A stretch of 64,000 nt of DNA from Eledone cirrhosa (taxonomy: Eukaryota), in the NCBI GenBank assembly GCA_964016885.1, contig OZ024752.1, positions 17,174,001-17,238,000 of the forward strand. Reading direction: 5' to 3'. The number at the start of each line of letters is the position of its first letter. Position 1 is the stretch's first letter. The notes below the pieces were generated by a model, which did no database searches, was not told where the DNA came from, and saw nothing but the letters and a program-made list of their open reading frames with translations. The position numbers and the translations under genes were made by a program. Shown here in pieces: positions 2,043 through 64,000 of the stretch.

Positions 2043-2057
2043 CATACATACATACAC

Positions 2058-2628: not shown

Positions 2629-3069
2629 CAAGGAAAAAAAAAATGAAATAAAATAAAATAATAATAATAATAATAATAAATAAAAAAAAAAAAAGAAATA
2701 TATATATATATATATATATATACATACATATATACACACATACATACACATACACACACACATATACACACACACATACATTAATAACAATAATAATAAT
2801 AATAATAATAGCAATAATAATAATAACGACAACAACAATAATGTTTTCTTTATTAACCACAAGGGTTCACATAATGTAGACATTAAGGACAGTACAGGAC
2901 AATACAGGACGGTACAAATGGGCATTTCTGCGTGTAAAAAAACAGAGGTTGAAATAAAATAACAAAGAAAAATTCCCCAATACGGGGGAGACTTCCAAGG
3001 TTCGACAACAACAATAATAATATACATATTCATATATATATACACACACACGCACGCACATAAGCATAT

Positions 3070-6000
3070 CTACACACACACACACGATAGCAACTAACAG
3101 TACTGCGATCGAATGTGGCTTTTTAGCCCAGCCAATGATCTAAAATGTCTTGCACAGAGTCGGCAACCAAAACATTCACTGGGAATAGTCGGCTGTGGTT
3201 GGAGTTCGTGTACTTTTGCATGTCGCTTGAGCCCTCCTGCTGATTTACATTCTCTACCACATGTTTGGCAAGCATGATGAGTAGCATCTCCAACAGCAGC
3301 CTGGTAGTCAACCACTGGTCTTACTTTATGACTGCGAAGATGACTTTCGAGTCCAGCTTTGCTTAGGCAGAGTCTCGCACAGACGCTGCATGTCAGCACC
3401 ATAGGAGGACCCTCGCCGCCTGGAAGTGCAACAGCAATGCCCTTCCTCACATCCCGCTTTACCTTCTCGTGTGCGATTCGAGATGCCTCAAAGGCAACTT
3501 TTCCCTCATATACAGTCTTTCTCCATTTATTACGATCAGCAGCAATATTCTCCCATGTATCAGCAGAGATGTTAGCGTCTTTCAGAGAGGCTTTCAAGGA
3601 ATCCGTATACCTCTTTTTTGGTTTATGTGGCGGTCGTTTTCCTTTAACCAACTCTCCATAGAAGAGTTGTTTTGGTATTCTAGAATCCTTCATCCTGGCA
3701 AGGTGACCACTCCAACGGAGTTGTTGCTTAAGCACAAGAGCTTCTATACTGTCACACATAGAGCTTTCCAAAATCTCGACATCACTGATGTGGTCCCTCC
3801 AGTGAACGCCATGGATCCGTCTGAGACACATCTGATGGAAACGCTCCAATTTCTTAAGGTGGCGTCGATATGTGACCCAGGTCTCGCAGGCATAAAGAAG
3901 ACAAGAGAGTACACATGCCCTGTACACCTTTACCTTTGTCCTCCTGCATATGTCTCGCCGACCCCCAGAGTCGCCTTTCTAGCTTTCCGAAAGCATCACT
4001 TGCTTTCCTAATCCTAAGTGAGATTTCACCGTCAAGGTTGCCGTATCGATTGACAGTGCTTCCCAGGTAGACAAACTGATCAACCACTCCAAGTCGTTTG
4101 CCATACACATAGATGTTTGGTTCAGTGTATTGCTTACTAGGGGCAGGTTGGTACATGACGACGGTTTTCTTGAGACTGACAGTCAAACCCAGGGCAGTGC
4201 AAGCGTTAGAAAATGCATTCAAAATGTGCTGCATATCACTCTCTGTGTGCGCTACAAGATCTCAATCATCTGCATACAAGAGGTCTCTTATGATTGATGT
4301 AAATACTTTTGTCTTCGCAGCAAAGCGCCTGATGTTAAATATGCTGCCTGAGGTTCGATATCGGATGTAAACACCATGCTCGCAATTCCTGAATGCAATA
4401 CAGAAAACCATTGCAAAGTATATGGCAAACAGGGACGGTGCTGGAATATCCCCCTGTTTCACTCCATTTTTTACTGAGATAGGCTCCGACATGTTACCTC
4501 CGACATTAACCCAAGCCTTCATGTCGTCATGGAAAGACCTAACTAAAGCAAGGAACTTATCAGGACAACCAAGTTTCTGGAGAACCTTCCATAATGCATC
4601 TCTGTTGACAGTATCGAAAGCCTTTGTCAGATCGAGAAAAACCTGATACAGATCCAAGCCTTGTTGAATGCACTTCTGGAGCTGTCTAGCTGAGAAGATC
4701 ATATCAGTAGTGCCGCGTCCAGCACGAAAACCAAATTGACTTTCAGGAAGAACACAATCTGCAATGTGTGTCAGCAGACGGTCCAGAAGCACCCTACATA
4801 AAACTTTCCCTACGACAGAAAGCAATGATATACCTCTGTAGTTCCCACAATCATTCCTGTTACCCTTTCCCTTGTACAAGACCACCATTACTGCATCTCT
4901 CCAGTCCTCAGGTACGGATTCATTAGCCCATATCCTTCCAAACAAAGAGTGAAGATGTTGCAGGAGTCTCTCACCACCATATTGTAGGAGCTCAGCATGT
5001 ATGCCATCCATACCTGGAGACCTTCCACTGTTCAGCTTCGAGATAGCCGCCGCAACCTCCACAAGCGTCGGAGGTTCTGCGAAAGCTACTTTCACAGGAC
5101 TTTCCGGAATGAGATTGAGGAAATCTTCATTGACGACAGACGGCTGATTCAAAAGATCATCAAAGTGCTCTCGCCACCTTCGTAGAATTCCTTGTGAGTC
5201 ACGAAGAAGTTCTTTGCCATCCTTGCTGCGAGGCGGTGTCACCAGAGAAGAAGACGGTCCATAAACTTCACGCAAGAGACTGTACAACAGTTTTGTGTTA
5301 TTGGAATCTGACGCAGTTTGTATCTCATCAGCCTTCTCACTCCACCACTTATCCTTCATCTGAGAAAGACTCCGCCTAACACGTGATTTTACATCCTTGA
5401 GTTCCTTATGCAACATATTCTTCTCCTGTGGTTTTGCCGTCAAGTAGCGTGACAGAGCACACCTCTTATCAGCCAACAAGTCTTCTATATGTATATCATT
5501 CTCATTAAACCAGTCCTGATGTTTTCTCTGCACCAATCCCAGAACACGCCCGCCTACATCATAAACCGAATTTTTAAGGGTCGGCCAATCCTCACCAAGA
5601 TCTGCAACCTGCATCTCTTCTTCCAATGTCCTCTTCACATTTTTATCGTTAAGACGAGCAGCATTCAATCTTTTGGGCAGGGCAACACTAGGAGCCCGGA
5701 TTTTACGTTTAGTGATTAGTTTCACCTTTGCGCGTACCAGGCGGTGGTCCGCCCAGCACTCAGCTCCATGAAGAGCACGAACACACTGCACATCCTGTCT
5801 GTCACGCATCCTGACTAGGACGTAGTCCAAAAGATGCCATTCCTTAGATGCAGGATGCATCCATATGGTCTTGAATTTGTTCTTTTGTTGGAACATGGTG
5901 TTGGTAATACACAGATCCAGCTCCTCACACATCTGCAGCAGGAGCATACCATTGTTGTTACACTTTCCCACCCCATGCATTCCGATTACATTCCATGTGT

Positions 6001-17356: not shown

Positions 17357-19211
17357 CGATGAATTAGTTTTGCGAGGTTTTTATATGAAATCGTGTGTCG
17401 AAACAAATATTGTTATACTTGGGGAGGGTCATATTTGTGTAATATTGCCAGAATTAATAACAGAACACATTCACTGTTTGGTTGGTTTTCGCTTTTCGCT
17501 TCTCTGTCTTTTATATCGGTAATCTAATTTATTCGGTCCTCAATGTTGCCATTGACTGACCAACGGTCAAAAATAATACAGATACAATATAGACACAAAC
17601 ACATATATATAGTTTATCAAAGTTCTTTCGTTGCACATCTGCAACATCGTCAGTGGTGCTATTGTTTCCTCCCGTTACATTGTATGTCTACGCCATCTTT
17701 ATTTAGTCTGTTTATATATTTATTTATTTATTTGTTTGTTTGTTTATTTTATTTTGTCTTCTTTGCGCATGCGTTTGCGTGTGTGTATAGTGTTTTGTTT
17801 GATGTGTGTTCGTGATTGGGTGACTGTGTATCGGTTAATGTATTCTATCTTTACTAGTGTGTGTTTATATGTGTTTGTTATTATTGTGCTTGTGTATGTA
17901 TTTATTTATTTATTTATCTATTTATTTATTTATTTATGCTTCTCTTAGGTCAGTGTTGTTTGTTTGGGTGTTGTTGTTATTCCATTCATTCTTTCTGTTT
18001 AGTTTTGGCCTTCTAAGTTCTATTTCACTGGCCTCTCTGATTTGCCTATCTGCTGGGTCATTTCTATGTTTAGATATTATTCTAATTTCTATGTTGTCTA
18101 TGTTACCGTCGTGTTGTTGTCTGGCATGTTCGTATAGTACTGACCCGTTTTTTCGTCCTTTTAGTTCCCCCCAGTGTTGGTCTATCCTTTCACCTATGCT
18201 ACGAGCTGTCTCGCCTATGTATGTTGTTATCATGTTTCTGCAAGTACCCTCTGTACATCTTATGCTATAGACTACGTTTCTAGTTTTACAGTTTATCCGG
18301 GGGTTTACCTTACATATGATACATTTCCTATTAGTACAGTGGGTTTTCTTAAAAGGGTAGGTTTTGCTGATCAGGGATTTTATGGTAGTTTCTGGCTTTT
18401 CTACCACCTTAATCTTTAAGTGGGTCTTTCTCAGGGCCTTTCTACACTGGTTAGCTAATTTCCCTCCAGGGGTAGCGTCAACAAACATGACACTCTGGTA
18501 TCTCTGGTTGTCGTACCATGAGGTGGCTTTCCCTATCTTATGTCTAGCCCTATCTAAGCAATTCCATGATTTGCTCCTGTATAATGGGCAAATTCCTTTC
18601 ATGTCCAGTTCTATGAGGGTCTTATACTTCTCCATGGCTCCTTCGTATACTCTGACTCTGTCTCTTTGGTTGTAGCCAGAGAACTGCATGCGGTTGATGA
18701 AGTGTTGGATGTGTCTTTCCATTTCTGTTGGGTCGCACATGCGGGACACATTCTTCATCACTCGTACCAAATCTGCGATCAGAATATTAAACTTAGCACT
18801 ACTGGACATTGCTGAGTTTTTGAGTATCAGGTATTTGGAGGCCATGGGTTTAGCATAGTGTGAGTGGAGAATTTGGGCTCTCTCGTCTATAGTGTTAATC
18901 CAGAGTTCCGTGTCTAATACAGGTAGTCTATTGTTAGGGTGTTTGGAAGGGTAGTCGATAGTTACAGTTATACTCTGGTGTATGGAATTAGCTATCTGCT
19001 GGATGCTTTCCATTGTGCTACGTTCTAAATCAAACTTGTTAGTGCTCTCTAGTGAGGATGTTCTTATAACTATATTGATATCGTCTACGTAACGAGAGTA
19101 CATGATGAGGTCTATGGAGCTCTCATTAAGGAGATCTTTAAGTCTCCTTTCCCACCATACCATAAAAAGGTTGGCAACATCACCAGCTATGCTGGTGATG
19201 TTACCAACGTT
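17355..19211 (-). mobile_element. Penelope-like element, 5'-truncated (RT C-terminal half + GIY-YIG endonuclease + 3' UTR)
   Basis: ORF 17934-19247: SRYVDDI, LPVLDTEL, a Cys-rich linker, and VVYSIRC...YIGETAR...R...H...E...LN (GIY-YIG). Confidence 0.9.
17616..17657 (-). ncRNA. Minimal hammerhead motif in the Penelope 3' UTR
   Basis: Reverse complement of 20009-20050. Confidence 0.55.
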
Positions 19212-20251
19212 GCTAACCAGTGTAGAAAGGCCCTGAGAAAGACCCACTTAAAGATTAAGGTGGTAGAAAAGCCAGAAACTACCATAAAATCCCTGATCAG
19301 CAAAACCTACCCTTTTAAGAAAACCCACTGTACTAATAGGAAATGTATCATATGTAAGGTAAACCCCCGGATAAACTGTAAAACTAGAAACGTAGTCTAT
19401 AGCATAAGATGTACAGAGGGTACTCGCAGAACATGACTACAACATACATAGGCGAGACAGCTCGTAGCATAGGTGAAAGGATAGACCAACACTGGGGGGA
19501 ACTAAAAGGACAAAAAAACGGGTCAGTACTATGCGAACATGCCAGACAACAACACGACGGTAACATAGACAACATAGAAATTAGAATAATATCTAAACAT
19601 AGAAATGACCCAGCAGATAGGCAAATCAGAGAGGCCAGTGAAATAGAACTTAGAAGGTCAAGACTAAACAGAAAGAATGAATGGAATAACTACAACACCC
19701 AAACAAACAACACTGACCTAAGAGAAGCATAAATAAATAAATAAATAGATAAATAAATAAATAAATACATACCCAAGCACAATAACAACAAACACATATA
19801 AACACACACTAGTAAAGATAGAATACATTAACCGATACACAGTCACCCAATCACGAACACACATCAAACAAAACACTATACACACACGCAAACGCATGCG
19901 CAAAGAAGACAAAATAAAATAAACAAACAAACAAATAAATAAATAAATATATAAACAGACTAAATAAAGATGGCGTAGACATACAATGTAACGGGAGGAA
20001 ACAATAGCACCACTGACGATGTTGCAGATGTGCAACGAAAGAACTTTGATAAACTATATATATGTGTTTGTGTCTATATTGTATCTGTATTATTTTTGAC
20101 CGTTGGTCAGTCAATGGCAACATTGAGGACCGAATCAATTAGATTACCGATATAAAAGACAGAGACGCGAAAAGCGAAAACCAACCAAACAGTGAGTGTG
20201 TTCTGTTATTAATTCTGGCAATATTACACAAATATGACCCTCCCCAAGTAT

Positions 20252-20259
<8 letters not shown>
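19212..20259 (+). mobile_element. Inverted duplicate of the Penelope 3' ~1.05 kb (GIY-YIG + 3' UTR)
   Basis: Near-identical reverse complement of 17407-18455. ORF 19409-19732 repeats the YIGETARS..LNRKNEW segment, with a 1-nt deletion upstream. Confidence 0.9.
20009..20050 (+). ncRNA. Minimal hammerhead motif in the Penelope 3' UTR
   Basis: ACCA-CTGACGA-T-GTTGCA-GATG-TGCAAC-GAAAG-AA-CTT-TGAT. Stem I is weak. Confidence 0.55.
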
Positions 20260-29368: not shown

Positions 29369-29505
29369 TGTTATTAAATATGTTATGATGCAATACTGAC
29401 TCTTTGTTTCTTTATTCTTATACTATTATACTGTGCTCTGCGCGAGCATCGAGTGCTCATCCGGCATACCAACTACAGACGCAATTATCTTGCACCTAAT
29501 CACTC

Positions 29506-29573
<68 letters not shown>

Positions 29574-29844
29574 TAAAACATGTCTTTAGAATCACTAGAT
29601 ATAATATATACCATTTCCTCTCCTAATCACCATAATTAACCATATAAGAAATCAATTAGACCAAGCTATAAGAATAAAGGCTCCTATGAAGAAATCTCCG
29701 ACAAATAACCGAAAGCAGCCCCTTCGCGGTGGCTGCGATGGAGTATTTATCGAACATTTCGACAACATGTAGAAATCGACCAGATGTACAGTCAACTAAA
29801 CATAATTAGGTGTAAAATCAAACTTAGAAGAAATGCGTACATAC

Positions 29845-29918
29845 CTCTACCATGGTTTCATCCGTATTTTAAGACATCCGATAACAGGGAATGTCTAGAG
29901 CTTCGGATTCATCAGGAG
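29845..29918 (-). ncRNA. Type I hammerhead ribozyme motif (family B, inverted arm)
   Basis: Reverse complement of the family B motif. Confidence 0.8.
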
Positions 29919-30101
29919 TGAACTCAAAATTAGACATTTAATTTTCCAAAGTGATCGCGCCAAAAATACATTCAAAAATGGCTAAGAATCGTGACGTGGC
30001 AGCGGTCAAGCTAGAAAGGATGTGATTAGTTGCTTACAACGTTTTTGAATGTATTTTTGGCGCGATCACTTTGGAAAATTAAATGTCTAATTTTGAGTTC
30101 A

Positions 30102-30175
30102 CTCCTGATGAATCCGAAGCTCTAGACAGTCCCTGTTATCGTATGTCTTAAAATACGGATGAAACCATGGTAGAG
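30102..30175 (+). ncRNA. Type I hammerhead ribozyme motif (family B)
   Basis: CTC-CTGATGA-ATCCG...CGGAT-GAAAC-CATG-GTA-GAG. Predicted cleavage after 30172. Confidence 0.82.
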
Positions 30176-30757
30176 GTAATTAGGTATGTACGCATTTCTT
30201 CTAAGTTTGATTTTACACCTAATTATGTTTAGTTGACTGTATATCTGGACGATTTCTACATGCTGTCGAAATGTTCGATAAATACTCCATCGTAGCCACC
30301 GCGAAGGGGCTGCTTTCGGTTATTTGTCGGAGATTTCTTCATAGGAGCCTTTATTCTTATAGCTTGGTCTAATTGATTTTTTATATGGTTAATTATGTTG
30401 ATTGGGAGAGGAAATGGTATATATTATATCTAGTGATTCTAAAGACATGTTTTATGATATATAGCTCTGATTATTTAATTTATTAATTCTTCATTGAGCC
30501 ACAACGTGACCTGTTGCAAAACACATATATATCTATGACTTTATATATATGTAAACCTTTATATGTAATAATCTCCCGTTTGGTTGAGATACAATTTGGC
30601 TATATTGGGCTGCGCTTTCAGCAATAAGCCTACCCGCCGTAAGCAACTAATCACATCCTTTCTAGCTTGACCGCTGCCACGTCACGATTCTTAGGCATTT
30701 TTGAATGTATTTTTGGCACGATCACTTTGGAAAATTAAATGTCTAATTTTGAGTTCA

Positions 30758-30831
30758 CTCCTGATGAATCCGAAGCTCTAGACAGTCCCTGTTATCGGAT
30801 GTCTTAAAATACGGATGAAACCATGGTAGAG
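30758..30831 (+). ncRNA. Type I hammerhead ribozyme motif (family B)
   Basis: Same motif. Predicted cleavage after 30828. Confidence 0.82.
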
Positions 30832-31413
30832 GTAATTAGGTATGTACGCATTTCTTCTAAGTTTGATTTTACACCTAATTATGTTTAGTTGACTGTATAT
30901 CTGGACGATTTCTACATGCTGTCGAAATGTTCGATAAATACTCCATCGTAGCGACCGCGTAGGGGCTGCTTTCGGTTATTTGCCGGCGATTTCTTCATAG
31001 GAGCCTTTATTCTCATAGCTTGGTCTAATTGATTTTTTATATGGTTAATTATGCTGATTGGGAGAGGAAATGGTATATATTATATCTAGTGATTCTAAAG
31101 ACATGTTTTATGATATATAGCTCTGATTATTTAATTTATTAATTCTTCATTGAGCCACAACGTGACCTGTTGCAAAACACATATATATCTATGACTTTAT
31201 ATATATGTAAACCTTTATATGTAATAATCTCCCGTTAGGTTGAGATACAATTTGGCTATATTGGGCTGCGCTTTCAGCAATAAGCCTACCCGCCATAAGC
31301 AACTAATCACATCCTTTTTAGCTTGACCGCTGCCACGTCACGATTCTTAGCCATTTTTGACTGTATTTTTGGCGCGATCACTTTGGAAAATTAAATGTCT
31401 AATTTTGAGTTCA

Positions 31414-31487
31414 CTCCTGATGAATCCGAAGCTCTAGACATTCCCTGTTATCGGATGTCTTAAAATACGGATGAAACCATGGTAGAG
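31414..31487 (+). ncRNA. Type I hammerhead ribozyme motif (family B)
   Basis: Same motif. Predicted cleavage after 31484. Confidence 0.82.
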
Positions 31488-31701
31488 GTAATTAGGTATG
31501 TACGCATTTCTTCTAAGTTTGATTTTACACCTAATTATGTTTAGTTGACTGTATATCTGGACGATTTCTGCATGCTGTCGAAATGTTCGATAAATACTCC
31601 ATCGTAGCCACCGCGAAGGGGCTGCTTTCGGTTATTTGTCGGAGATTTCTTCATAGGAGCCTTTATTCTTATAGCTTGGTGTAATTGATTTTTTTATATG
31701 A

Positions 31702-32341
31702 CAAAGAGCTCAGGATTTCTTCTCCTTTGAGCACATTATTTACAGGGAATAGCGAGGGCCTATGCCTCCGTTAATTTATCGTGATATTTCGCTCCTAATA
31801 ACAGTCTTTCCTACCTCAGTTTGGTTGAGCACACTTCTCTGAGTGGCTTTGGGCTGCCCTTTCTAGCAGTTCGTCCCCCAGAGGCCACTGGTTCACTGCC
31901 CTTAAACACGCTGTGACTTCTCCCTCCCATGTGTAGCTGGACAGTCAATTTTAAAATTCTCTTAGTGTTGTCTGAAATGTATAGCCTTACACACGGTGAT
32001 GAACCGAGGCTAACCCATTGCTTTCAACAAATTATTGGTGAAACATATCTTTGGATTAGTGTCTTTGGATTTGTACGTGTGTTATATAGTTATAGAGGTA
32101 TTTATTTACGCTTTAATTTATATTTTTAATTATCATGTCTATAGTCTGCCTTTCATAAATTATAGATTCCATACACTGGTGGTTTTTTCCCCCTGTTTTA
32201 TTGATAACGCACTATATATCTCTCTCTGGTGTGTTACCTTTTCAACATATTGTATTTTAAAGAGCTCAAGATTTCTTCTCCTTTGAGCACATTATTTACA
32301 GGGAATAGCGAGGGCCTATGCCTCCGTTAATTTATCGTGTT
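31702..32341 (+). mobile_element. Non-coding element with ~80-bp terminal direct repeats and a degenerate hammerhead (31991-32080)
   Basis: AAAGAGCTCA(G/A)GATTTCTTCTCCTTTGAGCAC...TTTATCGTG at ~31703 and ~32259. Motif ACACG-GTGATGA-ACCGA...TTGGT-GAAAC...GTA-CGTGT, with the first core C changed to G. Confidence 0.6.
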
Positions 32342-32343
32342 AT

Positions 32344-32427
<84 letters not shown>

Positions 32428-32899
32428 GGGGTGGGGGTGCGCGCGTGTGTGTGAGTATGTATTTGTGAATGTGTCTGTTGACATCTGGAATATGGCTTAA
32501 GAGAAACTTGAAGATAATGGTATGATAGGCACTCAATATTTTGAACTGGTCTATAGAATTCTCTAGGCCTTTATCACTCTAAGAAGAATTAGCTTTTAAA
32601 GAATTTCCCTTTTCTTTAAATCCATCAACCATGACTGACCACCAACGATCTTATAGACACCTGAAATATAGGCATTGTTAGCTTAAGAGAAACTTAAAAA
32701 TAAGGAGTGGCACCCCATTCTGAACTTGTTTATAGAATTCTTTCTGCCTTTGTTACTCTAAATATAAATTATAGCTTTAAAGAATTAGCTTTTAATGAAT
32801 TCTCTTTTCTATCAACCAATGACCTCTACCCATCGCACTCCCCACCTTCCCCTACCACCTGAAGAGATCTATAAATACCATATTTATTTTTTGATACCC

Positions 32900-32950
32900 A
32901 GATTCCTGATGATTTCTAAAGAATGAAACAGTTCTAGTCCTGTAGAATCT
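32900..32950 (+). ncRNA. Type I hammerhead motif
   Basis: AGATTC-CTGATGA-T-TTCT-AA-AGAA-T-GAAACAG-TTCTAGTC-CTGTA-GAATCT. Confidence 0.7.
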
Positions 32951-33047
32951 CATCTATATTAAAACTTTTATGCTCTGCTATGTATTGAGTACCTTAATTA
33001 CTGTGGTTACCTCCGATTCAACCCGGAATAACGTATATATATATAAC

Positions 33048-33104
<57 letters not shown>

Positions 33105-33244
33105 GGTTTGAGGTTCACCACTGTATAGAGCTGGTCTATTCCGTATGGTCAATCGTAATGCAATAATATAGAGAGTACTCAACGTAAAGCAGTTCAACCG
33201 TCTTTGTTTTTGTAGTTGGTGGTGCTATTACGGAGTTAAATATT

Positions 33245-34310
<1,066 letters not shown>

Positions 34311-34770
34311 TAAAACATGAGAAGAAAGAATACTGCGTGGTTGCACATGGGTTACATATGATAAAAATAGTCCTTCGTCAGTGATTTTCCAACCTTAATT
34401 GGTATTTCATCGCTTTAAAAATCATATACCTTCGGTTGGTGCGAACAATAGCTAAATAAAGCTATTGGGACAAGTAAATCGCGTAAAGCGAGCGAGACAG
34501 TAAACAACAGGGAAGGATAGCAACGCAAAGATAGGAAAAAACAAGCAGCATGGGAATCCGGTCAGCTTAAGCTGGGTGGATTTCATGAGCGAGAGGGATA
34601 TACAGACCATCCGACGTGAGTGAGATGTGAGCAAGAAGAGAACCCACTACAGGCCAAACGGGAGGAAGTGAAAAGGGGAGAAACAGAGAGTGAGTGAGTG
34701 GAAGTGCGAGGAAGAGGCCAGTCGAGAGAAAGTGTAACTGACAGAGGGAGCGAAAGAAGGTGAGAGAAAC

Positions 34771-34801
<31 letters not shown>

Positions 34802-34808
34802 TACATGT

Positions 34809-34894
<86 letters not shown>

Positions 34895-35534
34895 CAATAT
34901 ATAGAGGAGATAACACGAGAGAGTTTGTTTTCAATTACAGGGGTATAAGGCAACGAGAGTGAAAAATAAAAAAAAACATAATTAAAGAGATAAATTAAAA
35001 TGTATAAACCCACCTTTATAACTATAAAACACCTGGACAGACTCAGAGAGAATGCATTACCATAAACTGTGTAAGAATCATAACGACTCAGGGTTCGTCA
35101 GCAGGTTTAAATAAGGTACGTCTCCCATTTCTAAATAGACATTAGATAATTAACGTGTTGTACGTGTAGGGAGAAGGAAAATACGCGCGCCAGACAGTAC
35201 ATAGTGGCTCCTATGGATAAATAAACTGCCTGAAATGGCAGCTTATAACCATTCAACTGAAAAGGCGCAACAGAGAAATTAGTAAGGAGCTGAAATATCA
35301 AATGAAGCAACGGAGTTAGAGACTCGCGTGTATCCCTGTAATTAAATGAGCTGAAGGAATAAGTACCGGGCTCTTCATAATACAGTATAGACAGGAGAAA
35401 ACAGAAAAGAGTATGTTTTCAATTACAGCGCGAGTCTTTAACTCTGTTGTTTCATTTGATATATATATATATATATATATATCAAATGAGTGCTCACCCG
35501 GGTGAACCTGCAGTAACTCCTAGTTACACCCACT

Positions 35535-35575
<41 letters not shown>

Positions 35576-35581
<6 letters not shown>

Positions 35582-36211
35582 CCCAGAAAAACATGGGACG
35601 AGCTGATAAATTCCGACCTCACACGCTTACACCTCTCCAAGACAATGTCACTGGACCGAGACCTTTGGCGGTACTCAGTAATAGAGAAGACCCGCCTTAC
35701 CTAAATACAAAGTAAAAACCTACTACAGTCAGTAGGCATCTCTATCAAAACACACCCCCGTCCCACCACCTCCACCCCACCCACACCGCCCCTTTCAATG
35801 TAAAGTTATGTTGGTCCCACAACATCCAGGCCGAAACAAATGAGATCGTGTAGGTGTCACGACAAAAACACACAGTCCACGCTGTAAATGTGGCCGTGTA
35901 GGCAACACGGTAAAAACCTCCCAGCCCCACACTGTAAATGTGGTTGGTGTTAGGAAGGGCATCCAGCTGTAGAAAACCCGCCAGACAGTCCACGCTGTAA
36001 TGTGGCCGTGTAGGCAACACGGTAAAAACCTCCCAGCCCCACACTGTAAATGTGGTTGGTGTTAGGAAGGGCATCCAACTGTAGAAAACCCGCCAGACAG
36101 TCCTATGCGAACAAGACAACCACTCTTGCCTCAAGTGGGAAAACCCCCGTCCAAACCCATGCAAGCGTGGAACACGGACGCTAAACCTGATGATGATGAT
36201 GATGATGATGA
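35576..36211 (+). mobile_element. RTE-like LINE 3' end with a ~113-bp internal duplication and (GAT)n tail
   Basis: RPRKTWDELINSDL...DRDLWR. AGGAAGGGCATCCA(G/A)CTGTAGAAAACC occurs twice. Confidence 0.7.
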
Positions 36212-36339
36212 TATACAATGCAAACACCAAAACCAACCACTAGCACAACCCGAAACAACACCGCACAGACAACACATCACAACAACCAACTACATGCTAA
36301 CTCCAAACAGAATCTGACCAACCGGCAATAAAACAACAA

Positions 36340-36802
36340 CCCCATAACTCCCAGCTGTAACCGCAAAAAGCGGGGGGAATGCCCACTGAGCGGGAAGTGC
36401 CTCGTTTAATACATTATATACCAGTACGATGTCACAGCCGGTCGGAAGGAATACACCTATATAGGCGCGACCTCGACTACATTTAAAGAGCGTTTGTACA
36501 ACCACAAAAGCTCTTTCAACCACAGACCTAAGCGTTCCCAAACCAGTCGGGCCGATTTAATCTGGAACCTCAAAGATAGGAATCTGAAATACCAGATCAA
36601 ATGGTCCGTTTGGAGACGCATGGCCCAACTTTCCAGCAGAGGAAGCCACTGCAGGTTGTGCCTGGCAGAATCGGTAGAAATCATTAAATTAAAATCGGTC
36701 ATTAATTTGAGATCGGAAATCCTCATAAACTGCAGACACACCGAAAAGCATAATTCTCTGCCATGGTATATGGGCAGTAACCACAGACCGACCAAAACTT
36801 AA
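36340..36802 (+). mobile_element. Penelope-like GIY-YIG endonuclease fragment
   Basis: ECPLSGKCLV*YIIYQ...TYIGATSTTFKERLYNHKSSF...IKWS...CRLCLAE...INLRSE...CRH. Confidence 0.8.
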
Positions 36803-37265
36803 CCACCTGAAATTAGACAACGATAGACACAACATCCTAGTAACTGCTAACTTTATCATCGTCTCCATTACTACTGTTACGTTCATTACAATTGATGTTC
36901 TTGTTAATATTACATTGCATCCTTTATCATGTCCCTCATCACTAAACATATCACCGTATATCCACAACTCTCAACCACACTAACACATACCACATACCCT
37001 TAAGGCACACACAAACCAGCAGCGCCATGCACATCACCCCAATTGATTTCATCACTTCCATTTGTATTACCAATTTCATCACCGTTATTTAACATTACAG
37101 GGGCGGTGGATTGGCAGGTTCTTTCTATTTCAAGGTTAACGCTTGAAATAGAAGGAACATGGTCTTATCGTTTCGGTCGCTTGTCCTTCATCAAAAGAAA
37201 GTATGTTAAATAAGATAAACTGAAGGGTGAATGCAGCGATTCTTTGCATAAACTTTAATCTGTTA

Positions 37266-37307
<42 letters not shown>

Positions 37308-37335
37308 ATCAAAAGATGGTTAAAAGAGTTCCAAG

Positions 37336-37406
37336 TATTTTATTATGCGCATTTCAAAAACATATATCATCATGGGATGATATCTGCGTTCTCATCAGAT
37401 AAAATA
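37336..37406 (-). ncRNA. Type I hammerhead motif
   Basis: TATTTTAT-CTGATGA-...ATATCATC/GATGATAT...-GAAAT-GCGC-ATA-ATAAAATA. 8-bp stem I and palindromic stem III. Confidence 0.68.
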
Positions 37407-37552
37407 GGGAGACATGAGCTGAAGCTTAAAAAACACTTGTGAGCAGCGAGGTTTTAAATCAACATATCTTATATTAGTTATACCCCAGTCCTAGAGTGCT
37501 ACTTATCCGATATTTGCATTGCTTTATTGTGCTACAATAAAATTCACCTCCT

Positions 37553-37584
<32 letters not shown>

Positions 37585-37845
37585 TTCGTTTTCTGAATTT
37601 GTTTAGCAAGATTCTTTATCTGAAAACGTGTGTTGAAACCGATATTGTTATACTTTGGGAGGGTCATGTTGCCAATAAGAAACACACGTACCAGTTGCTT
37701 TCACTCCAATTTATTATAAATCAAGAAATTTTTTCAAAAAAAAAAAAAAGAATTTATGTAAAAGAATTTATTTTTTATTTTTTTTTTTTTAAATTTATAA
37801 ATTTCCGGTTGGTTGGTTCCACAACCGGATGGTTGTTCATATATT

Positions 37846-37888
37846 GTCAAAGTTATTTCGTCACACATTGTGTGACCTCTTCAGTGAC
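37846..37888 (-). ncRNA. Minimal hammerhead motif, relative of the Penelope 3'-UTR motif
   Basis: GTCA-CTGAAGA-G-GTCACAC-AAT-GTGTGAC-GAAAT-AA-CTT-TGAC. Confidence 0.6.
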
Positions 37889-38032
37889 TGGCGATTTCTT
37901 TCTTTGTTTTGTGCCAGTCCTTTGTTCCGTCCTACGCCATCTTGTTTTTGTATATATAGTAATAATAATAAATTTGAATAATTCTTTGCTTAAACTTTAA
38001 TCTGTTATTTTAATAAATAAATAAATAAATAA

Positions 38033-38177
<145 letters not shown>

Positions 38178-38325
38178 TAACAGATTAAAGTTTAAGCAAA
38201 GCCGCAATTCTTTGCTTAAACTTAATGTGTTATTTTAAATATTTGCTCTAGGGTTCTTATATATTTGATATATATTTATGCTTATCGAGCCCTCTTTGGA
38301 GTTTAGTCTTCTCATTTATTATTAT

Positions 38326-38389
<64 letters not shown>

Positions 38390-38391
<2 letters not shown>

Positions 38392-38975
38392 TATAAAGCA
38401 TGTCCATAGAATCATTCGATAATATATATACACCATTTCCTCTCCCAATTAGCATAATCAACCACACAAAAAAACAATTAAACCAGGCTATAAGATTAAA
38501 AGCACCTATGAAGAAATTGTAGATAGATAAACGACAGCCATCTATTAGCGATCAACCGCTATAGAATATTTACCCAACATTTCAATAGCACGTGGAAATC
38601 GATTAAATATACCTTCAACCATACACAATTAGGTATAAAATTAAAGTTAGAAGAAAAAATGCATATACACATACCAGGATTACGTTTCTACCCTTAGGGT
38701 TTCGTTCGCTTTTGGAAATATCCTATCAAGGATAAATTCTCGAGCTTCGAACTCATCAGGAAACAAACTCACTTGGACAAAGATTTTTCTTAAATGATCC
38801 CCGCCAGAAACGAATTCAAAATGGCTAAGAACTGTGACGTGGCAGTGGTCAAGTCAGAAAGAATGTGATTGGTGCCTTACGACGAGTGGGCTAGTTGCTA
38901 GAAAGCGCAGCCCAATATTGCCCAAATTGCATCTCAACCTTATGGGAGATTATCAAATATAAAGATTTACATATA
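38390..38975 (-). mobile_element. Diverged single unit of hammerhead repeat family B (hammerhead at 38684-38764)
   Basis: Shares ACCATTTCCTCTCC, AATGGCTAAGA, GTGACGTGGCAG and GCGCAGCCCAATAT with family B. Motif GTTTC-CTGATGA-GTTCG...CGAAC-GAAAC-CCTAAGG-GTA-GAAAC. Confidence 0.82.
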
Positions 38976-40255
38976 CACAAACTATATATATATATATGTG
39001 TGTGTGTGTATATATGTGTAGATATGTGTATGTGCGTGTGTATATGTAAGTGTATGTATGTGTGAGTGTGTGTATGTGTGTGTATGAATATGTATGTGGG
39101 CTGTAATTATCTATACATGTAGGGAAGTGAATATGTGACCAAGCATGTCGCTCCACCCACACATCCCCTCCCAAACCAATATCACCATCGTACATTTCTG
39201 ACAAATATTCCCAAACTATCCTGAATTTTCTCTTTGCTGTCATCCCATTCTTATCAAAAGACAAGTATCTTACACCTCATTAAAACCCCCCCACCACCAG
39301 ACAAACACCTAAATTCATCTTTAATATAGAAAATTGTAGAAGTTATTCTTCATAAATTTAAGGTAGTTGATTCAGCTATAAGAAAAGAATTTGAAAAACA
39401 TCCTGCCATTATATTCATCACAGGTCATTTATTGAAATGTAACCCGCAGGAGGAGACTTTTACAGTCCCTTTCCTAAACAGTCTTTAAACAACCCAACAC
39501 CACTCCCAATTATCTTGCTGTTACCATTCACTATTTTCTGTATATGTATCTGTTAGACACGCAGTGACTAACAACAGAATGTTTTAAGTCTGCATGTTGT
39601 ATGAAAATATATGCGTAGTTTGTGAATAAAAGATTCAAGGGGTATTGCTGGCCGTGGCGATTCCTTCCAAACATGTTTTGTAATGTATCGTCTTATTGGC
39701 TAATTTCATCGTCTTATTGGCTAATCAACCAATGAGAGTAATTGTTGCTCAAAAGCGTTTTGTTTGCACGTTTATTTATCGTTTCGCTTTCGAATCTTCC
39801 TCATGTATTTTGTCGTTTTATCATCAAAATATTTTTCTCGTTTTGGTAAGTTATATTGTTAATTTATATATGAATTTTTAAATTTATATTAACTATTTTT
39901 TTTCAGTTCGTTATAACATGCTTAGAATATTGGTTGTATCATATTTACTTGTATATATGTCCATATTATTGTTCGTTTTATGTTAGATTATTTTATTATT
40001 ATTATGTTAGATTATTTTTTTATTATTATGTTAGACTATTTGTATGTAATATTTAATTTTTATTAATTCAACTATAACAATTATTATGTAAAATATATTT
40101 ATTTAATATTGATTGTTTTTTGTAGTTGTTTATATTAAAAGTCTCAAAATATTTTTATACATCTTACAATAATATTTATAAGATCATTTATAAAATAACA
40201 ATTATATAAACTAATTACATTACAACAATAATTTATTATTAATATATATCATTAA

Positions 40256-47431: not shown

Positions 47432-48675
47432 CTAAAGACGAATCCATTGTGGCAGAAAATAATCATTATAGTCAGCACTGTACGCATTTCGAAGTCCGGA
47501 TTTTTCTTTAGCTGGTGGGAAAAAGTAAGTAACTTTTCCTTTACATAAGAATCCAGCCCACCAGCTGAAACTACCTATAGAAGAAATCAAATGATCACTG
47601 CTAGATAGAATAGCCATATCTTCTGTTGCTGAGTTACCCTTTACAAAATAAGTACTATTGTCAAATATATTTTTTTCACACCATGGTATACCATTAGAAC
47701 AAACAATAAATATCACATTTTTATAATGAGATCGAAACCATTCTTTTGCCTTTATGAAATATTCCTTTGTAGCCACGTTATGTCCATGAGAGTTGTTAAC
47801 CATATCACCACGTCGTACATGTATTCCCACCAACGTCCAGTTCTTTATTGATGTATTTATAGAAATGTTTTCATGAGTTTTAACAAAGTTCCTTAGAATT
47901 CTAACAGCTTTCTGTTTAATGTTCTTTTTAAAAGTGAACTGGGAATGGATTTCGTCGAATATGTGTTCAAAATACTTGTAAGACTGTAAATATGTTCCAA
48001 TAATAATATTGTTATTATTACTAATATTAAAGAAACTAGGATCAAAAGAACTGGCATGGTGTTCATATTTTCTTTTAGCCTTATTGCAAGAAGATTTATT
48101 TTTCTCAAAACCGTATATATTAAATATTTTTTGTAAATTTATGTCATCATTACGAATAGTCACATTCATATTTTTTAGTCTTGCTAAACCTAAACCCGTT
48201 GCAAAAATAAACATTTGATTACCCAACCTTCCAATTAAATTGATGCACACGTATTTTTGTGTAGTTCTTTGTCTTTCCAAACTTGTAGTATTATTGTAGG
48301 TAGGTGGTTGAGTGCTTGTTGTTCGTGTTTCCAAACTTGTTGTGTTATGGTAGGTAGGTGGTTGAGTACTTGTTGTTCGTGTTTCCAAACTTGTAGTGTT
48401 ATGGTAGGTAGGTGGTTGAGTGCTTGTTCGTGTTTCCAAACTTGTAGTGTTATGGTAGGTAGGTGGTTGAGTAGATGTTATACGTTTCTTCAACATGGTC
48501 GTCTTAAGAAGAGTAGACGGTGTGGTGAACTTTTCCAATTTGCTATTTCTTATAAAATTGACTGGTGATTTGAAATTAACTATTCTTTGTTGAATTCCGG
48601 TGAAGGGAATTCCCATAAAGACAAAATACAGGGAAACAACAGCCAACATACAAAGCCATAGAAACTTGCGTTGAT
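47432..48675 (-). CDS. Alpha-1,2-fucosyltransferase (glycosyltransferase family 11, FUT1/FUT2-like), main coding exon
   Basis: Motifs GRLGNQMF, GTYLQSYKYF, GIHVRRGD, DMAILS..DHLISSIGSFSWWAGFL and FLPQW. N-terminal transmembrane segment FLWLCMLAVVSLYFVFMG. A likely splice acceptor TTTTATTTTACAG lies just before 48675, so the start codon is probably in an upstream exon. Confidence 0.9.
48265..48480 (-). repeat. Coding tandem repeat, 4 x 51-54 nt, (T)TSTQPPTY(H/N)NTTSLETR
   Basis: Visible in the translation and the DNA. Confidence 0.92.
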
Positions 48676-49062
48676 CTGTAAAATAAAAGTAGAAACTATG
48701 TAATGTAACTAGCTGGCCCCGTGCCGTCAAAAATGATGGCTCATTGTAATATCTATACATAATATAAACAAGAGATGTTTGTTGTTTGTTTCTTGGCACA
48801 AGAGTGATACGAATACACAAAGGCACAGCCAATGTGTAGTCAATTCGCTATACATATACACAGACAAGTGTGACGAACCATAGAACGCTGGACTGCTATA
48901 GTTTCTCACCACTCTCCCTTCCTCAGTCATCACATACATGTGTGTGTATGTAATAATCATTTCTCTAAGTGTGTCTGTTTATATATATGTATGTGTAGAT
49001 GCATGCGTGTATTTGTAATTGTATAGTCTACGTATCTTTCTAAATAAAACACACACACACAC

Positions 49063-52738: not shown

Positions 52739-53093
52739 ATTAACAACAAAGAGCGCTTAGAACATAGGTATATCTTTAATTGCTAACAGTGTTTCGTCCA
52801 CACTAGAAGTGGGACTCTTCAGAGCATAAAGAGTAAATACATAGTATACAAGCATTGACAAAGCCAAAACAGTAAAAATATGTAAAACTGTTGAACTGCG
52901 GCTAACTGCAACACCTAAGGCGTTCGCGTGCTCCTGATATATTCCATATATCACCATGAGTCAACACTAGTGTCACCTTAGGATTTCTATAATAATATTA
53001 TTATTACATGCCCTAATAATTACCATCTTGATTACCCTTATTACATCTTTTTACCCCCAGTTACATTTTTATAAATATGCATTACTTGGACTG

Positions 53094-53133
<40 letters not shown>

Positions 53134-54022
53134 TTGTATATACGTCTCTTGTATATATATTTTTTATATATATTTTTGTATATATTTTTGTATATTTTAT
53201 ATATTGTACGTATATCACTTGTTGAACATAGCTTGATAGCTTATGCATTTGCCAGTCTTATCTTTACCCACACCTTCCTTTATGGTGTATATTTTACTCC
53301 ATTTTTTTTGGTGTATTGTTTTATTTATCTTCTGGTGTATATTTGACTTTACTTTATTTTATTTTATTCTATTTTATTTTATTTTTTATTTTTTATCTTT
53401 TATCTATTTTTTATCTATTTCTTATCTATTTTTTATCTATTTTTTATCTATTTTTTAATCTATTTTTTATCTATTTTTTATCTACCTCTTATCTATTTTT
53501 TATCTATCTCTATCTCTTAACTTGTGCCCATCCGTCTATGATATGTTATTTGTATTAGTGTATACTGTATGTGTTGCATATGGGTGCTTGTGTGTAGGTG
53601 CATGCGGGTGCTCATGCTTATGCGTATACTTGTATGTAGCTGTATGTTAACGGAACCCTGCCCAACTGTGAGTGATAACATTTCTTTTTTATTTTTCATT
53701 TTTATTTTTATTCTTATTTTTATTTTTATTTTTATTTTTATTTTTATTTTTATTTTTATTTTTATTTTTATTTTTATTTTTATTTTTATTTTTATTTTTA
53801 TTTTTATTTTACTCTTTTCTTATTTTACTCCTTTTACTTTACTCTTTAAACTCCTCCCAACTTATGGTATCCCCACACATATTCTTCTGTTTTGGCTTTG
53901 TCAATGCTTGTATACTATGTATTTACTCTTTATGCTCTGAAGAGTCCCACTTCTAGTGTGGACGAAACACTGTCAGCAATTAAAGATATACCTATGTTCT
54001 GAGCGCTCTTTGTTGTTAATTG
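52737..54022. mobile_element. Non-coding element with ~135-bp inverted arms, each carrying a hammerhead (52781-52826 minus; 53933-53978 plus)
   Basis: TGCT-CTGAAGA-GTCC-CAC-TTCTA-GTG-T-GGAC-GAAAC-ACT-GTC-AGCA (GTT in the minus copy). Confidence 0.8.
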
Positions 54023-58739: not shown

Positions 58740-61700
58740 TGACACTCGCACTTTCAAACATTCGATCGTTGAAGAGAACAACCCTCGGAGGTACACTAAT
58801 AATGCCACAACTACAGTCAGGTTGAATAACTGGTTATTCTTCTAACTATATCTTCTGAAGACACCTTTTATTCGAATTCGTAGAGATATCCGACTAAATA
58901 CATAATTCATCTTACAAGGATTTGCTACAAACAGCATGGCTGAACACAACATCAACAAAAAAATTAAGGAAATACCGAAGACAAATAACAAGGAAGGTAA
59001 TCAAACTTTATTCAGTTGTAACTACAGAAGAAAACGAAATTATAAATCGCATTTCTCTTTGAGTTGCGAACTTAATAATGATTTATTTAATTGTTATAAA
59101 ATGGCAAAAAACAATCCCTCCATTGGCTATATGAATAGAATGAAGCTACACTGGGACGAAATGCACCCAGAGCTAAATTATTTCATAGCGAAACAATTAC
59201 GCCAACAAGCGACGTTTGTTGAAAGTAAAAATAAGATAAATATTATTAATTGTAAGTCCCCCACAACAAACATGTTATCAACAACTCGTGTTACAGTTAA
59301 GCTACTAAACTTCCTAGCAGTCAGGTCGATCAATGCCTTGAAACAACTATGCCAGTAAGAAACTTGACACCACCTGTACCATCTAAGTCTACCTCGAATG
59401 CTTGGAAAAACACTATCGATAATAATAATAATCGAAGAAATTTGACACCACGTGTACCATCCGAGTCTACCTCGACTATTGTGGAAAATACTATCGATAA
59501 TGATAATCAAAAGTATAAACAATTGAAAATTTCCCTCAATGAAATCTTCCCGAGAGAAATTAACTCATGTATAAATATCTCTCTTGCTGAACGTGTTAAA
59601 ACGACAATGTTGAATAAAAAACCAAATAATGAAATATTACGTGTTATTGACGAAATAGGGATGAATATTTACGACGGATAAAACCCCAACATTTTGGCAA
59701 ATCAACGCCAAAAATACCATCATATATAACTAAAATAGAAAAAAGATTGCTGACCTACGAAAAAACATAGGATATGTGACAATGCTCCTTACATGCAAAC
59801 AAACACAAAAAAACCTCACTCCTCACCAACAAAGAGTGAAAAATAAAATAGAAACGATGTTTGGTAACAGTAGAACCAGAACTCTCCAATATAAGCTGAT
59901 CACCCTCAAACAAGAATTTAGAACTGTTAGCGAAAAACGCCGATACCTGAAGAAGGTAGATGAGATAAAAGTGCTTAATAAAAGATTCAGACGAAACCAA
60001 ACATCAGTCTATAGAAATATGAAGGGCAAAATAATAAGTGTCACCGAGACCCCATCCCAGAAAGACATAGATTCCTTTTGGAGAAAAATATGGGGTGAAA
60101 AGAAGAATTTCAACCAAGATGCAATGTGGCTAAGAGAAATCCGAAAGAACTATTGCTCCTACACTACAACAAAAACATACGAAATAAGTGAGGGTACCCT
60201 TGAGACTGTGATAGGAAACCTCCAAGATAAGAAAACACCAGGAAGAGACATGATTGTCGGCTACTGGTACAAAAAACTGATATTCTATCGGAGGTATCTT
60301 ACTGACCTCTACCAACAAGTTCTTAAGGGAGATACACTTATACCAGAATGGTTGACATTAGCACAAACATTACTGGTCCCCAAGAACAAAGACACCCACT
60401 TGGAAAAAACTACCGACCCATTGCATGTATAAGATGTATAAGATGTATAAGATGTATAAGATGTATACAGCCTGCCTGAACCTATTCCTCCCAGATCACT
60501 GTGAAAATAATAACATCATCACAGATGAACAAGCAGCTAGAAAGAAAGGGGTTTGGGGATGTGCTGAACAACTCCTAATCAACAAAACTGCGATGTCGGA
60601 GGTGCGACAACTTAGGAGGAATATGACTACAGTCTGGCTGGACTACAGGAAAGCTTTCGATTCTGTTCCCCACTCTTGGATGATAGAGGCCCTCCAACTT
60701 GCTAATGTCCCAGACATTATTGTCAGAGCCATAGAGAGGCTGTCTTCTTCTTGGGCTACTATCCTAAGGTTAAAGACAGAGAGGGAGGACTCTATTTTCA
60801 CTGATAAAATAAAATATTGCAGGTGTATATTTCAGGGGGACAGTCTCTCTGTGATATTATTCATCTTGTCATTAAACCCCTTGTCCTTTCTGCTCAAGAA
60901 CTGTGAGGGATACATCATTGGCTCACAGGAGGACAGAAATACGAACCTAACCCATAATTTCTTTGTGGACGATCTGAAACTCTATGCCAAGAACATGGAT
61001 GGGCTGAAGAAAAATCTTGACCTGGTTACAACGTTCTCAAAGGATATAGGAATGGAGTTTGGCCAAGATAAATGCTCATACATGACTGTAAAGCGGGCAA
61101 AAACAACAACCCAATCTAGCAACATTGTCATCAATGGCCTGACTGTTTCACCGATATCTTATGAGGACTGCTACAGATACCTGGGGATAGATGAGAACTT
61201 ATCCTATAATGGTATCTGTAATAAAGAACGCGTAACCAAGGAATACTACACCCGATTAAGAAAGATCTGGTCATCGGAACTCTCTGCACAAAACAAAATA
61301 GTGGCTCACAATGTGTTTGCTGTGCCTGTTCTAACACCAACGTTTGGAATACTCAATTGGACGATAGACGAAATCCGAGCAGTTGATGTTGGAACTCGAA
61401 AAATACTGAACAACACCGGAAACTTCCACATCAACAGTGACATAAACCGCCTTTACTTGAAGCGTAAGCAGGGGGGCAGAGGCCTAACATCAGTCCAGAC
61501 AACATTTGAATGTCGCATCTTATCTCTCCGACAACATCTACGAACCTCGAAGCGTAGGAGCCCGTTTCTCGAGCAAGTCTATCTGCATGAAACAGATAAG
61601 ATCATGAGAGTTGGGAAGGAATTCCTCGAGAGATATTCCCTGTGTGATAATCAAAAACTCACACCCAGGGAAGTCGCTCAGCAGTATCGCAGTGAATCCA

Positions 61701-62621
61701 TGGATGAAAAGCTGCATGCCTATCAGCAAAAAATCATGCATGGATATGTTGCCAGGAAGCTCCAGAGTGAGAGTAATATAGATAAGGAAAGTAGTCTATC
61801 TTGGACCAACAACCGCTATATTGGCTCCCACTTTGAAGGATACGCTTTTGCAATCCAGGAACAGGAGATTAGCACGAAATACCTGATTCACAAAAGAGAT
61901 AGGGATGCAGGCAAAACACGTAGATGTGATAACAAGTGCAGACTCTGCAAAAAAGATAGCCCGATAATAAACACATTAAAACCTACAGCAATGTGGAAGA
62001 CATCCATGTACATAATATGAAAGAGTAAAAACCCCAATAAAATGCAGGCATAACAGACCAGATATTATGATATGGGATAGGGAGAAGAAAGCATGCACAG
62101 GAGTAGAAATTAGATGCCCAGCAGATGCCAATATAATATCAAAGATTAGTGAAAAGGAGAACATTTATGCAGAACTGATGAGAAATCTGCAGATACTCCA
62201 CCCTGATTACACCTTCAGATTTATGCCTGCAATTATTGGGGTACTGGGATATGTTAGTAACTGCCTCAATACAAATCTTGAGAAGCTAGGCTTCACAGGA
62301 ACAGAAAGAACACAACTAGTTAGGAAATTACAAGTACAATCCATTAATGGAACAGTAAAAATATGTAAAAAATTCCAAAATATTTGCATCTAATAACTGC
62401 ATATACACATGTACAGATACAAAGCATATACACATGCACACATACAACTCAAAACGTACACATCCACACATACAATAACATCCATATCTACACACGCATG
62501 CATACATACATATCTACCTAGTTGATGTTGTGTAAATTTCAATGAGGGAGTCTTGTGTCTATGTTAGAAACCGACTCTCTCTCTATTGGTAAAACTTTGT
62601 GAAATTATAAAACCAGAAGAA
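58740..62621 (+). mobile_element. R4/Dong-like non-LTR retrotransposon, near full length, frameshifted
   Basis: ORF pieces 58936-59358, 59349-59681, 59776-60432 (KTPGRD, LVPK), 60425-62020 (RT) and 62067-62393 (RLE). Ends in (CATA)n. Confidence 0.9.
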
Positions 62622-64000
62622 CATACATACATACACACATGATGGCTGTCCCCTTGTTATCGAGTATGGCCATTGCACGATATACTATTATTAATAACTA
62701 TCAATTAATTCTATCGTGCAATGCCTGTGCGTGAGGAAACACTGTGCACTGAGCCAATCCCGCTCTCTGAGCGACAGTAGCTATAACCCAAAAAGAAGAA
62801 AAGATCAACATCATCGGTAACTACTGAGCCGCAGGTTTTATATGTGAGTTATCCCAGCTTCCTGAATTGCCTTCTCCTAGAAGAATTCCCCGACAAAGGC
62901 TAGGGGTCCTTCACTCCCAGTGGTTTAACCAAGCGGTACATGTGTATATACATATTTACACAATTTCGGATGGCCGTTGACTCTTATGAGTTCTTCCGCC
63001 CTTTGTCAGGTTTTGTTTTTTGTCCTGCAGGGTGTCAAAAATCCTCCTCCTCACCAAGTAAACTTGGTGGGGTTGCCGGTTTAGTCGCCGACGACCCGAC
63101 CATGCGACAGGTTGTACTGGGTTACATGTTACCAGTAGCACTCAAGAGTAACCCGACATACACACATACATGATGGCTGCCCCTCGTTATCGAGTATGGC
63201 CATTGCACAAGGAAAAAAAAAATGAAATAAAATAAAATAATAATAATAATAATAATAAATAAAAAAAAAAAAAGAAATATATATATATATATATATATAT
63301 ACATACATATATACACACATACATACACATACACACACACATATACACACACACATACATTAATAACAATAATAATAATAATAATAATAGCAATAATAAT
63401 AATAACGACAACAACAATAATGTTTTCTTTATTAACCACAAGGGTTCACATAATGTAGACATTAAGGACAGTACAGGACAATACAGGACGGTACAAATGG
63501 GCATTTCTGCGTGTAAAAAAACAGAGGTTGAAATAAAATAACAAAGAAAAATTCCCCAATACGGGGGAGACTTCCAAGGTTCGACAACAACAATAATAAT
63601 ATACATATTCATATATATATACACACACACGCACGCACATAAGCATATCTACACACACACACACGATAGCAACTAACAGTACTGCGATCGAATGTGGCTT
63701 TTTAGCCCAGCCAATGATCTAAAATGTCTTGCACAGAGTCGGCAACCAAAACATTCACTGGGAATAGTCGGCTGTGGTTGGAGTTCGTGTACTTTTGCAT
63801 GTCGCTTGAGCCCTCCTGCTGATTTACATTCTCTACCACATGTTTGGCAAGCATGATGAGTAGCATCTCCAACAGCAGCCTGGTAGTCAACCACTGGTCT
63901 TACTTTGACTGCGAAGATGACTTTCGAGTCCAGCTTTGCTTAGGCAGAGTCTCGCACAGACGCTGCATGTCAGCACCATAGGAGGACCCTCGCCGCCTGG
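60580..64000 (+). repeat. Near-identical direct copy of positions 1-~3423 (segmental duplication, offset 60,579)
   Basis: All ORF coordinates shift by exactly 60,579. The only differences I noticed are two substitutions (SLF/SLS, KAT/KPT) and one 2-nt deletion near 63906. Confidence 0.95.

Follow-up and report, generated by a model that had tools for sequence, protein, structure and literature searches.

A type I hammerhead ribozyme motif with an intact core occurs in two variants, A and B, of a non-coding 600-656-nt repeat in the 64,000-nt stretch of DNA analysed here (the window), and the helices of the two variants differ by paired substitutions that keep the fold. We consider it likely that the repeat is a non-autonomous Penelope-like element of the retrozyme type, whose ribozymes are predicted to cut a tandem transcript into unit-length RNAs.

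Identity and parts of the ribozyme motif

Variant B lies on the minus strand at 38683..38765, where the MFE structure of 38660-38790 is the hammerhead fold. Its parts, all on that strand, are stem I (38760-38765/38683-38688), the CUGAUGA core (38753-38759), stem II (GUUCG/CGAAC; 38748-38752/38704-38708), a 39-nt loop II with a nested hairpin inside (38709-38747), the GAA (38701-38703) and helix III, ACCCUAAGGGU (38690-38700), with the predicted cut after the A at 38689. Variant A is present three times on the plus strand, at 30102..30175 (copy 1, with one change that makes the nested hairpin of loop II weaker), 30758..30831 (copy 2, predicted cut after 30828) and 31414..31487 (copy 3), and once inverted on the minus strand at 29845-29918. 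The sequences and coordinates of both elements compared in the preliminary description of this DNA agree with ours. CUGANGA, GAAA and NUH follow each other in order in all five copies (four of A, one of B), and in both variants three helices surround the core, with stem I open-ended; stem I of variant A has 3 bp and a low predicted probability (0.03-0.08). Hammerhead position numbers (10.1, 11.1, A9) follow the established convention, and in these terms pair 10.1-11.1 is A-U in variant A, not the usual G-C, and G-C in variant B. The unpaired base between A9 and 10.1 that belongs to the minimal-form consensus is absent at the sites found by descriptor, and the motif is therefore not classed as minimal form.

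Eight hammerhead descriptor sites are found in the window, against a mean of 0.01 and a maximum of 1 per shuffle in 300 block-wise dinucleotide shuffles of it, and helix III is self-complementary in seven of the eight, compared with none in the shuffles. The Rfam hammerhead models give no match in the whole window at gathering score, nor in 29500-39200 at E<=10, where the output held just microsatellite and inverted-repeat noise; this miss is probably due to loop II with its 39 nt.

Paired changes between variants A and B

The earlier reading of 30102-30175 and the diverged copy as homologous is upheld, as the flanking repeat units align well past the motif: blastn of 30521-31119 against 39001-38385 gives 75% identity over 620 columns (E 6e-105), and outside the ribozyme 408 of 515 aligned columns are identical between A and B. 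Compensatory changes had been proposed for all three stems. In stem II they are clear, since ATCCG/CGGAT against GTTCG/CGAAC amounts to two double transitions, at pair 10.1-11.1 (A-U/G-C) and at the third pair (C-G/U-A), both of which were recovered by a blind RNAalifold run (4/5 copies; columns 25:73 and 27:71). For stem I the proposal stands in part: the third pair shows a double change (C-G/U-A), while the extra length comes from insertions, the alignment placing insertions in both arms of the variant B stem, which has five pairs and a further wobble. For stem III it does not stand, as there is no compensatory substitution and the core-adjacent pairs A-U and C-G are unchanged; helix III of A (ACCAUGGU) differs from that of B by a 3-nt insertion, which turns a perfect palindrome into ACCCU-A-AGGGU and leaves the arms self-complementary. 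Self-complementary helix III is a mark of dimer-type hammerheads. The core (CUGAUGA, GAAA and GUA) is the same in both variants, as had been noted, and with a P of 0.077 at the background rate the lack of change in all 11 core letters is weak evidence alone.

In total, A and B differ by three double substitutions, two in stem II and one in stem I, with none of eight pairs broken. At background rates the probability of at least three double changes with 0/8 pairs broken is 1.1e-4, and conditional on 6 changes among 16 stem sites the same outcome has a P of 6.5e-4; stem II taken alone gives 1.8e-3 or 9.8e-3, depending on the test. These P values compare two variant types (five copies, four of them of one type), with stem I taken as the pairs kept by both. 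The ribozyme region is 57-70% identical per 30 columns (30727-30862), versus 79% in the rest of the unit, and because its sequence is less conserved than the flanks yet its pairing is kept, the fold appears to have been under selection. The earlier claim that this happened while the family diverged is thus supported as regards pairing, with stem III adding no compensatory substitution to it. The simplest target of such selection would be the master RNA by which a selfish repeat transposes, rather than any function for the host.

We hold it very improbable that chance, or template switching of DNA between the short inverted arms, produced these paired changes with no selection on RNA. Template switching is described as able to produce apparent compensatory changes (PMC8794818), and the case here is built on just three double changes between two variants, with a P of about 0.01 for stem II by itself; against this, separate events would be needed in two helices together with an insertion that preserves the palindrome, the core exactly bounding all of them, and four sequence-unrelated families in the window have the core and a palindromic helix III in common.

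Layout and gene content of the host repeat

Subfamily B is represented by a single copy of about 600 nt on the minus strand (38385..39001), flanked 5' by (CA)n/(TA)n and 3' by (TA)n. Subfamily A forms a 5'-truncated partial tandem on the plus strand (30042..31702), made up of roughly two and a half 656-nt units, in which three hammerheads are spaced exactly 656 nt apart with no ORF between them and units 1 and 2 show 12 differences in 656. Head-to-head with this tandem lies an inverted, 5'-truncated copy on the minus strand (29572..30041), which has a (TA)n end, holds the hammerhead at 29845-29918 and carries an 8-nt deletion behind stem I. The inverted copy and variant B terminate at the same point in (TA)n, so that (TA)n borders two of the three free 3' ends; the remaining one is cut short at 31702. 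Two known patterns are thus present, namely the Penelope-type insertion pattern (a partial tandem, an adjacent inverted 5'-truncated copy and a microsatellite target) and the non-LTR retrozyme pattern (at least two non-coding units in tandem, with a complete type I hammerhead in each). A 57-nt segment between the subfamily A tandem units (30464-30520) is missing from B and from the inverted copy and could represent either captured flank or a tail of the Penelope type. The stretch 31703-32343, which starts exactly at the cut end of the tandem and ends at (AT)n, is an element with direct repeats of 85 nt (31703-31787 and 32259-32343).

A coding reading of the unit was rejected, as the longest Met-started ORF in the doubled unit has 35 aa. 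An RT plus GIY-YIG ORF of the kind that lies between pLTRs is not present in the unit, and within the window no autonomous partner sharing its ends was found. When the window was searched with nhmmer, the family gave the five known copies and six weak matches (E 8e-5 to 0.4), which sit in AT-rich or self-overlapping places. Pattern scans for further copies returned 15 loci in metagenome_contigs and 19 in genome_contigs, which align to the unit over at most 39 columns and were set aside as chance, and 0 loci in viral_contigs.

About 80-157 nt before the core, a conserved block on the minus strand (38834..38916) contains CCAAT-like and CRE-like motifs at equal offsets in A and B, and may have a promoter role. 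Donor-like, acceptor-like and ATG motifs follow the ribozyme, again at offsets matching in A and B. This arrangement bears on an alternative that we regard as unlikely, in which the unit would be a pseudo-LTR (pLTR) belonging to an autonomous Penelope-like element with its ORF at another place, and the copies in the window would be truncated or multimerised pLTRs. The motifs on either side of the ribozyme are what such a reading has in its favour, as pLTRs are reported to contain a promoter, an intron and an ORF start (PMC8557442, PMC11167929), but it is opposed by the three regularly spaced ribozymes of the tandem with nothing coding between them, by a tblastn comparison of the window's four GIY-YIG/RT ORF pieces with the unit, which gave no match, and by six short motifs of the unit, which had no match by eye in the cephalopod Naiad end given in the supplement of PMC8557442.

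Predicted folding and proposed mechanism

The predicted energies of helix III differ between the variants, and in A this helix is predicted to be stable just as a duplex of two molecules. In variant A the intramolecular hairpin has +2.9 and the self-duplex -11.2 kcal/mol, in variant B a 4-bp hairpin has -2.9 and the self-duplex -14.8 kcal/mol, and the A x B duplex has -3.7 kcal/mol. The cofold minimum of two copies contains an intermolecular helix III in both A and B, and the whole double hammerhead for B. The active monomer fold of variant A lies 4-6 kcal/mol above its MFE, and in the MFE of the 656-nt monomer the hammerhead is not formed; self-pairing of this monomer is not beyond that of shuffles (z -1.2, with 4/20 shuffles as good), and for the variant B unit z is -1.8, with 2/100 shuffles as good. 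Variant A is predicted to need a dimer, and variant B to fold as a monomer too.

In the mechanism that we propose, an upstream internal promoter would drive read-through transcripts, in which neighbouring ribozymes would pair via their palindromic helix III to form a double hammerhead and cleave after GUA. A Penelope-type RT/GIY-YIG protein supplied in trans could then copy the cleaved pieces, perhaps circularised, and insert them at (TA)n. Amplification would continue only from masters whose fold still works, and compensatory changes would become fixed between subfamilies with no host function needed; the covariation would then exist because of selection among amplifying masters.

More speculatively, and in our judgement probably going too far, A and B would be a natural switch pair, in which 3-nt growth of helix III made the obligate-dimer A into a B that also cuts as a monomer, and in which the inability of A and B to pair would make helix III a self-recognition code separating the subfamilies. 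The same proposal would hold that the 49-nt core spacer and a pseudoknot from the 5' flank to loop II form an undescribed architecture missed by Rfam, implying many uncounted cephalopod hammerheads. The candidate pseudoknot pairs GAGUU (38766-38770) with AGCUC (38742-38746) in variant B (minus strand, 38742..38770) and 30751-30755 with 30774-30778 in variant A (plus strand). With -4.9/-5.0 kcal/mol, and 9-13% of random flanks matching as well, it may be taken as a weakly supported lead; a variant at 38745 (99/430 reads) converts G-U to A-U and keeps the candidate pair.

A long imperfect hairpin is also predicted 3' of the ribozyme on the minus strand (38423..38673), closed by the family's most deeply covered motif, and is at most suggestive. 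Pairs of A scored in B give P=0.0007 and those of B in A P=0.029, compared with 0.10 and 0.94 on the opposite strand and 0.0007 and 0.11 for a 5' control; folded separately in A and B, the hairpins have 2 pairs in the same register, and 7/12 listed variants at paired sites break a pair in B's own fold. Given the score of the 5' control, the register mismatch and the pair-breaking variants, a conserved 3' hairpin is not claimed.

Variation among copies of the variant B subfamily

Four runs (X1, X14, X4 and X6) of 16, none of which is recorded as RNA, were aligned to 38330-39060 at 80% likeness. The unit was matched by 3475 contigs in X1 (569 of them at 99% or more) and by 3863 reads in X14, as well as by 54 contigs in X4 and 14 in X6, which carry two other organism labels. 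With thousands of matching records, variant B is therefore a high-copy subfamily and not a single decayed copy. The ends of X14 molecules coincide with AATT sites and are attributed to digestion of the library, not to RNA ends.

Four of the listed differences (40 of 283) fall inside the motif, none of them in the core, stem I or the helix III arms; records with many differences are clipped, which biases these counts toward the letters of variant B. Position 38752 (G10.1) is U in 234/448 X14 reads, with a depth of 20538/36152 in X1. Its partner, 38704, shows no change among the same 40 of 283, where a neighbour of 38704 with 77/196 reads does appear, and the two sites cannot be phased; pair 10.1-11.1 may be loosely constrained. 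In loop III, one base is missing at 38694 in 19/192 X14 reads and 9 X1 contigs, and one base is added behind 38693 in 26/200 reads and 2 contigs (from the 12 of 30 indels listed). Both of these length variants keep self-complementary arms, and one is a perfect palindrome.

The frequent U at 10.1, together with A10.1-U11.1 and the 3-bp stem I of variant A, could also be expected if the conserved fold were chiefly a signal for dimerisation or protein binding and cleaved itself little in vivo, and Penelope-type hammerheads are reported to cleave poorly in vitro even as dimers (PMC4209133). We hold this to be quite unlikely, as no catalytic core letter is lost in any of the five copies, of either variant; moreover, natural ribozymes with a 10.1-11.1 mismatch are on record (PMC3088659), and a mussel retrozyme that lacks the usual loop contacts still cleaved (PMC7229834).

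Comparison with known hammerheads and retrozymes

The motif was not placed in a Penelope-type element by the preliminary description, and Cervera and De la Pena (2014) had already described covarying families with a palindromic helix III from the Penelope-like elements of various animals, including molluscs (PMC4209133). Compared with the minimal, Penelope-type hammerhead, the motif described here has no unpaired base between A9 and 10.1, its variant A is without G10.1-C11.1, no ORF is attached, helix II has 5 bp and a 39-nt structured loop that puts 49 nt between the core halves, and the helix III palindrome is longer, at 8-11 nt. Like the Penelope-like elements treated in PMC8557442, the repeat shows an inverted 5'-truncated copy, a partial tandem and microsatellite targets.

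Retrozymes are known in mussel (Cervera and De la Pena, 2020; PMC7229834), and in the account of Li et al. (2026; 10.64898/2026.07.22.740005) retrozymes with units of 51-972 bp are tied to Penelope-like elements. As here, animal non-LTR retrozymes are described in these two papers as low-GC, non-coding units in tandem, each with a single type I hammerhead, and have been proposed to be non-autonomous Penelope-like derivatives; the 656-nt unit falls within the size range of Li et al. It is longer than the 170-400 nt invertebrate circles (PMC7229834), the canonical 6-bp/4-bp helices given for retrozymes are absent here, and monomer self-pairing is modest.

For pseudoknot-stabilised hammerheads, pairing of the stem I region with the stem II region has been reported to take the place of loop-loop contacts in about 40% of representatives (Perreault et al., 2011; PMC3088659), whereas the contact considered here is a weakly supported prediction without two-sided covariation. 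The cephalopod Naiad 'HHR_half_core' elements (Craig et al., 2021; PMC8557442) resemble the present repeat in their (TA)n preference and cephalopod hosts, and in core halves that lie 35-50 nt apart; a Naiad link is nevertheless unsupported, as the unit has no sequence likeness to the Octopus Naiad ends examined from that source. In the giant squid genome, 235 hammerhead loci have been counted (PMC6962438).

In the literature and supplements compared, which lie apart from Repbase/Dfam and Lunse et al. 2017, there is no description of this 600-656-nt family. If confirmed, it would be a further hammerhead family, from what is probably a cephalopod genome, that is unusual in structure, present in high copy number and overlooked by Rfam models; A and B would provide a natural pair for probing monomer versus dimer cleavage and the role of the ribozyme in Penelope-type transposition, which is called still unclear in PMC8557442. 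Neither a new ribozyme class nor a host function is revealed.

Other features of the window

Further hammerheads occur in the window. A third, unrelated type I hammerhead (37336-37406, minus strand) has an 8-bp stem I, a palindromic helix III (AUGCGCAU) and a long interrupted stem II, with 36 nt between the core halves; a piece of GIY-YIG ORF lies some 530 nt away on the opposite strand (36410-36802). A fourth family consists of CUGAAGA hammerheads with the odd palindrome ACACUGU (52781-52826, minus; 53933-53978, plus), which lie inside 148-nt inverted repeats (52736-52883/53877-54023) adjoining (TA)n. A fifth hammerhead, at about 37835-37892 (minus strand), has CUGAAGA, one unpaired base, a 7-bp stem II and GAAA, and is probably decayed. 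A Penelope-type RT/GIY-YIG remnant with 1-kb inverted repeats occupies 17407-20259 (ORF 17934-19247, minus strand), and neither descriptor finds a hammerhead within it.

The segment 26459-28428 is a satellite in which a 28-nt unit occurs 71 times. The ends of the window (1-3423 and 60580-64000) are 99.9% identical, either because 60.6 kb is duplicated in tandem or because the assembly contains a duplicate, and they enclose a fucosyltransferase gene. The three best relatives of its ORF, at 63-65%, are found in Octopus and Argonauta, which makes a cephalopod host likely. The ORF encodes a GT11 alpha-1,2-fucosyltransferase (47432-48847, minus strand) whose stalk carries a Thr-rich repeat of 18 aa.
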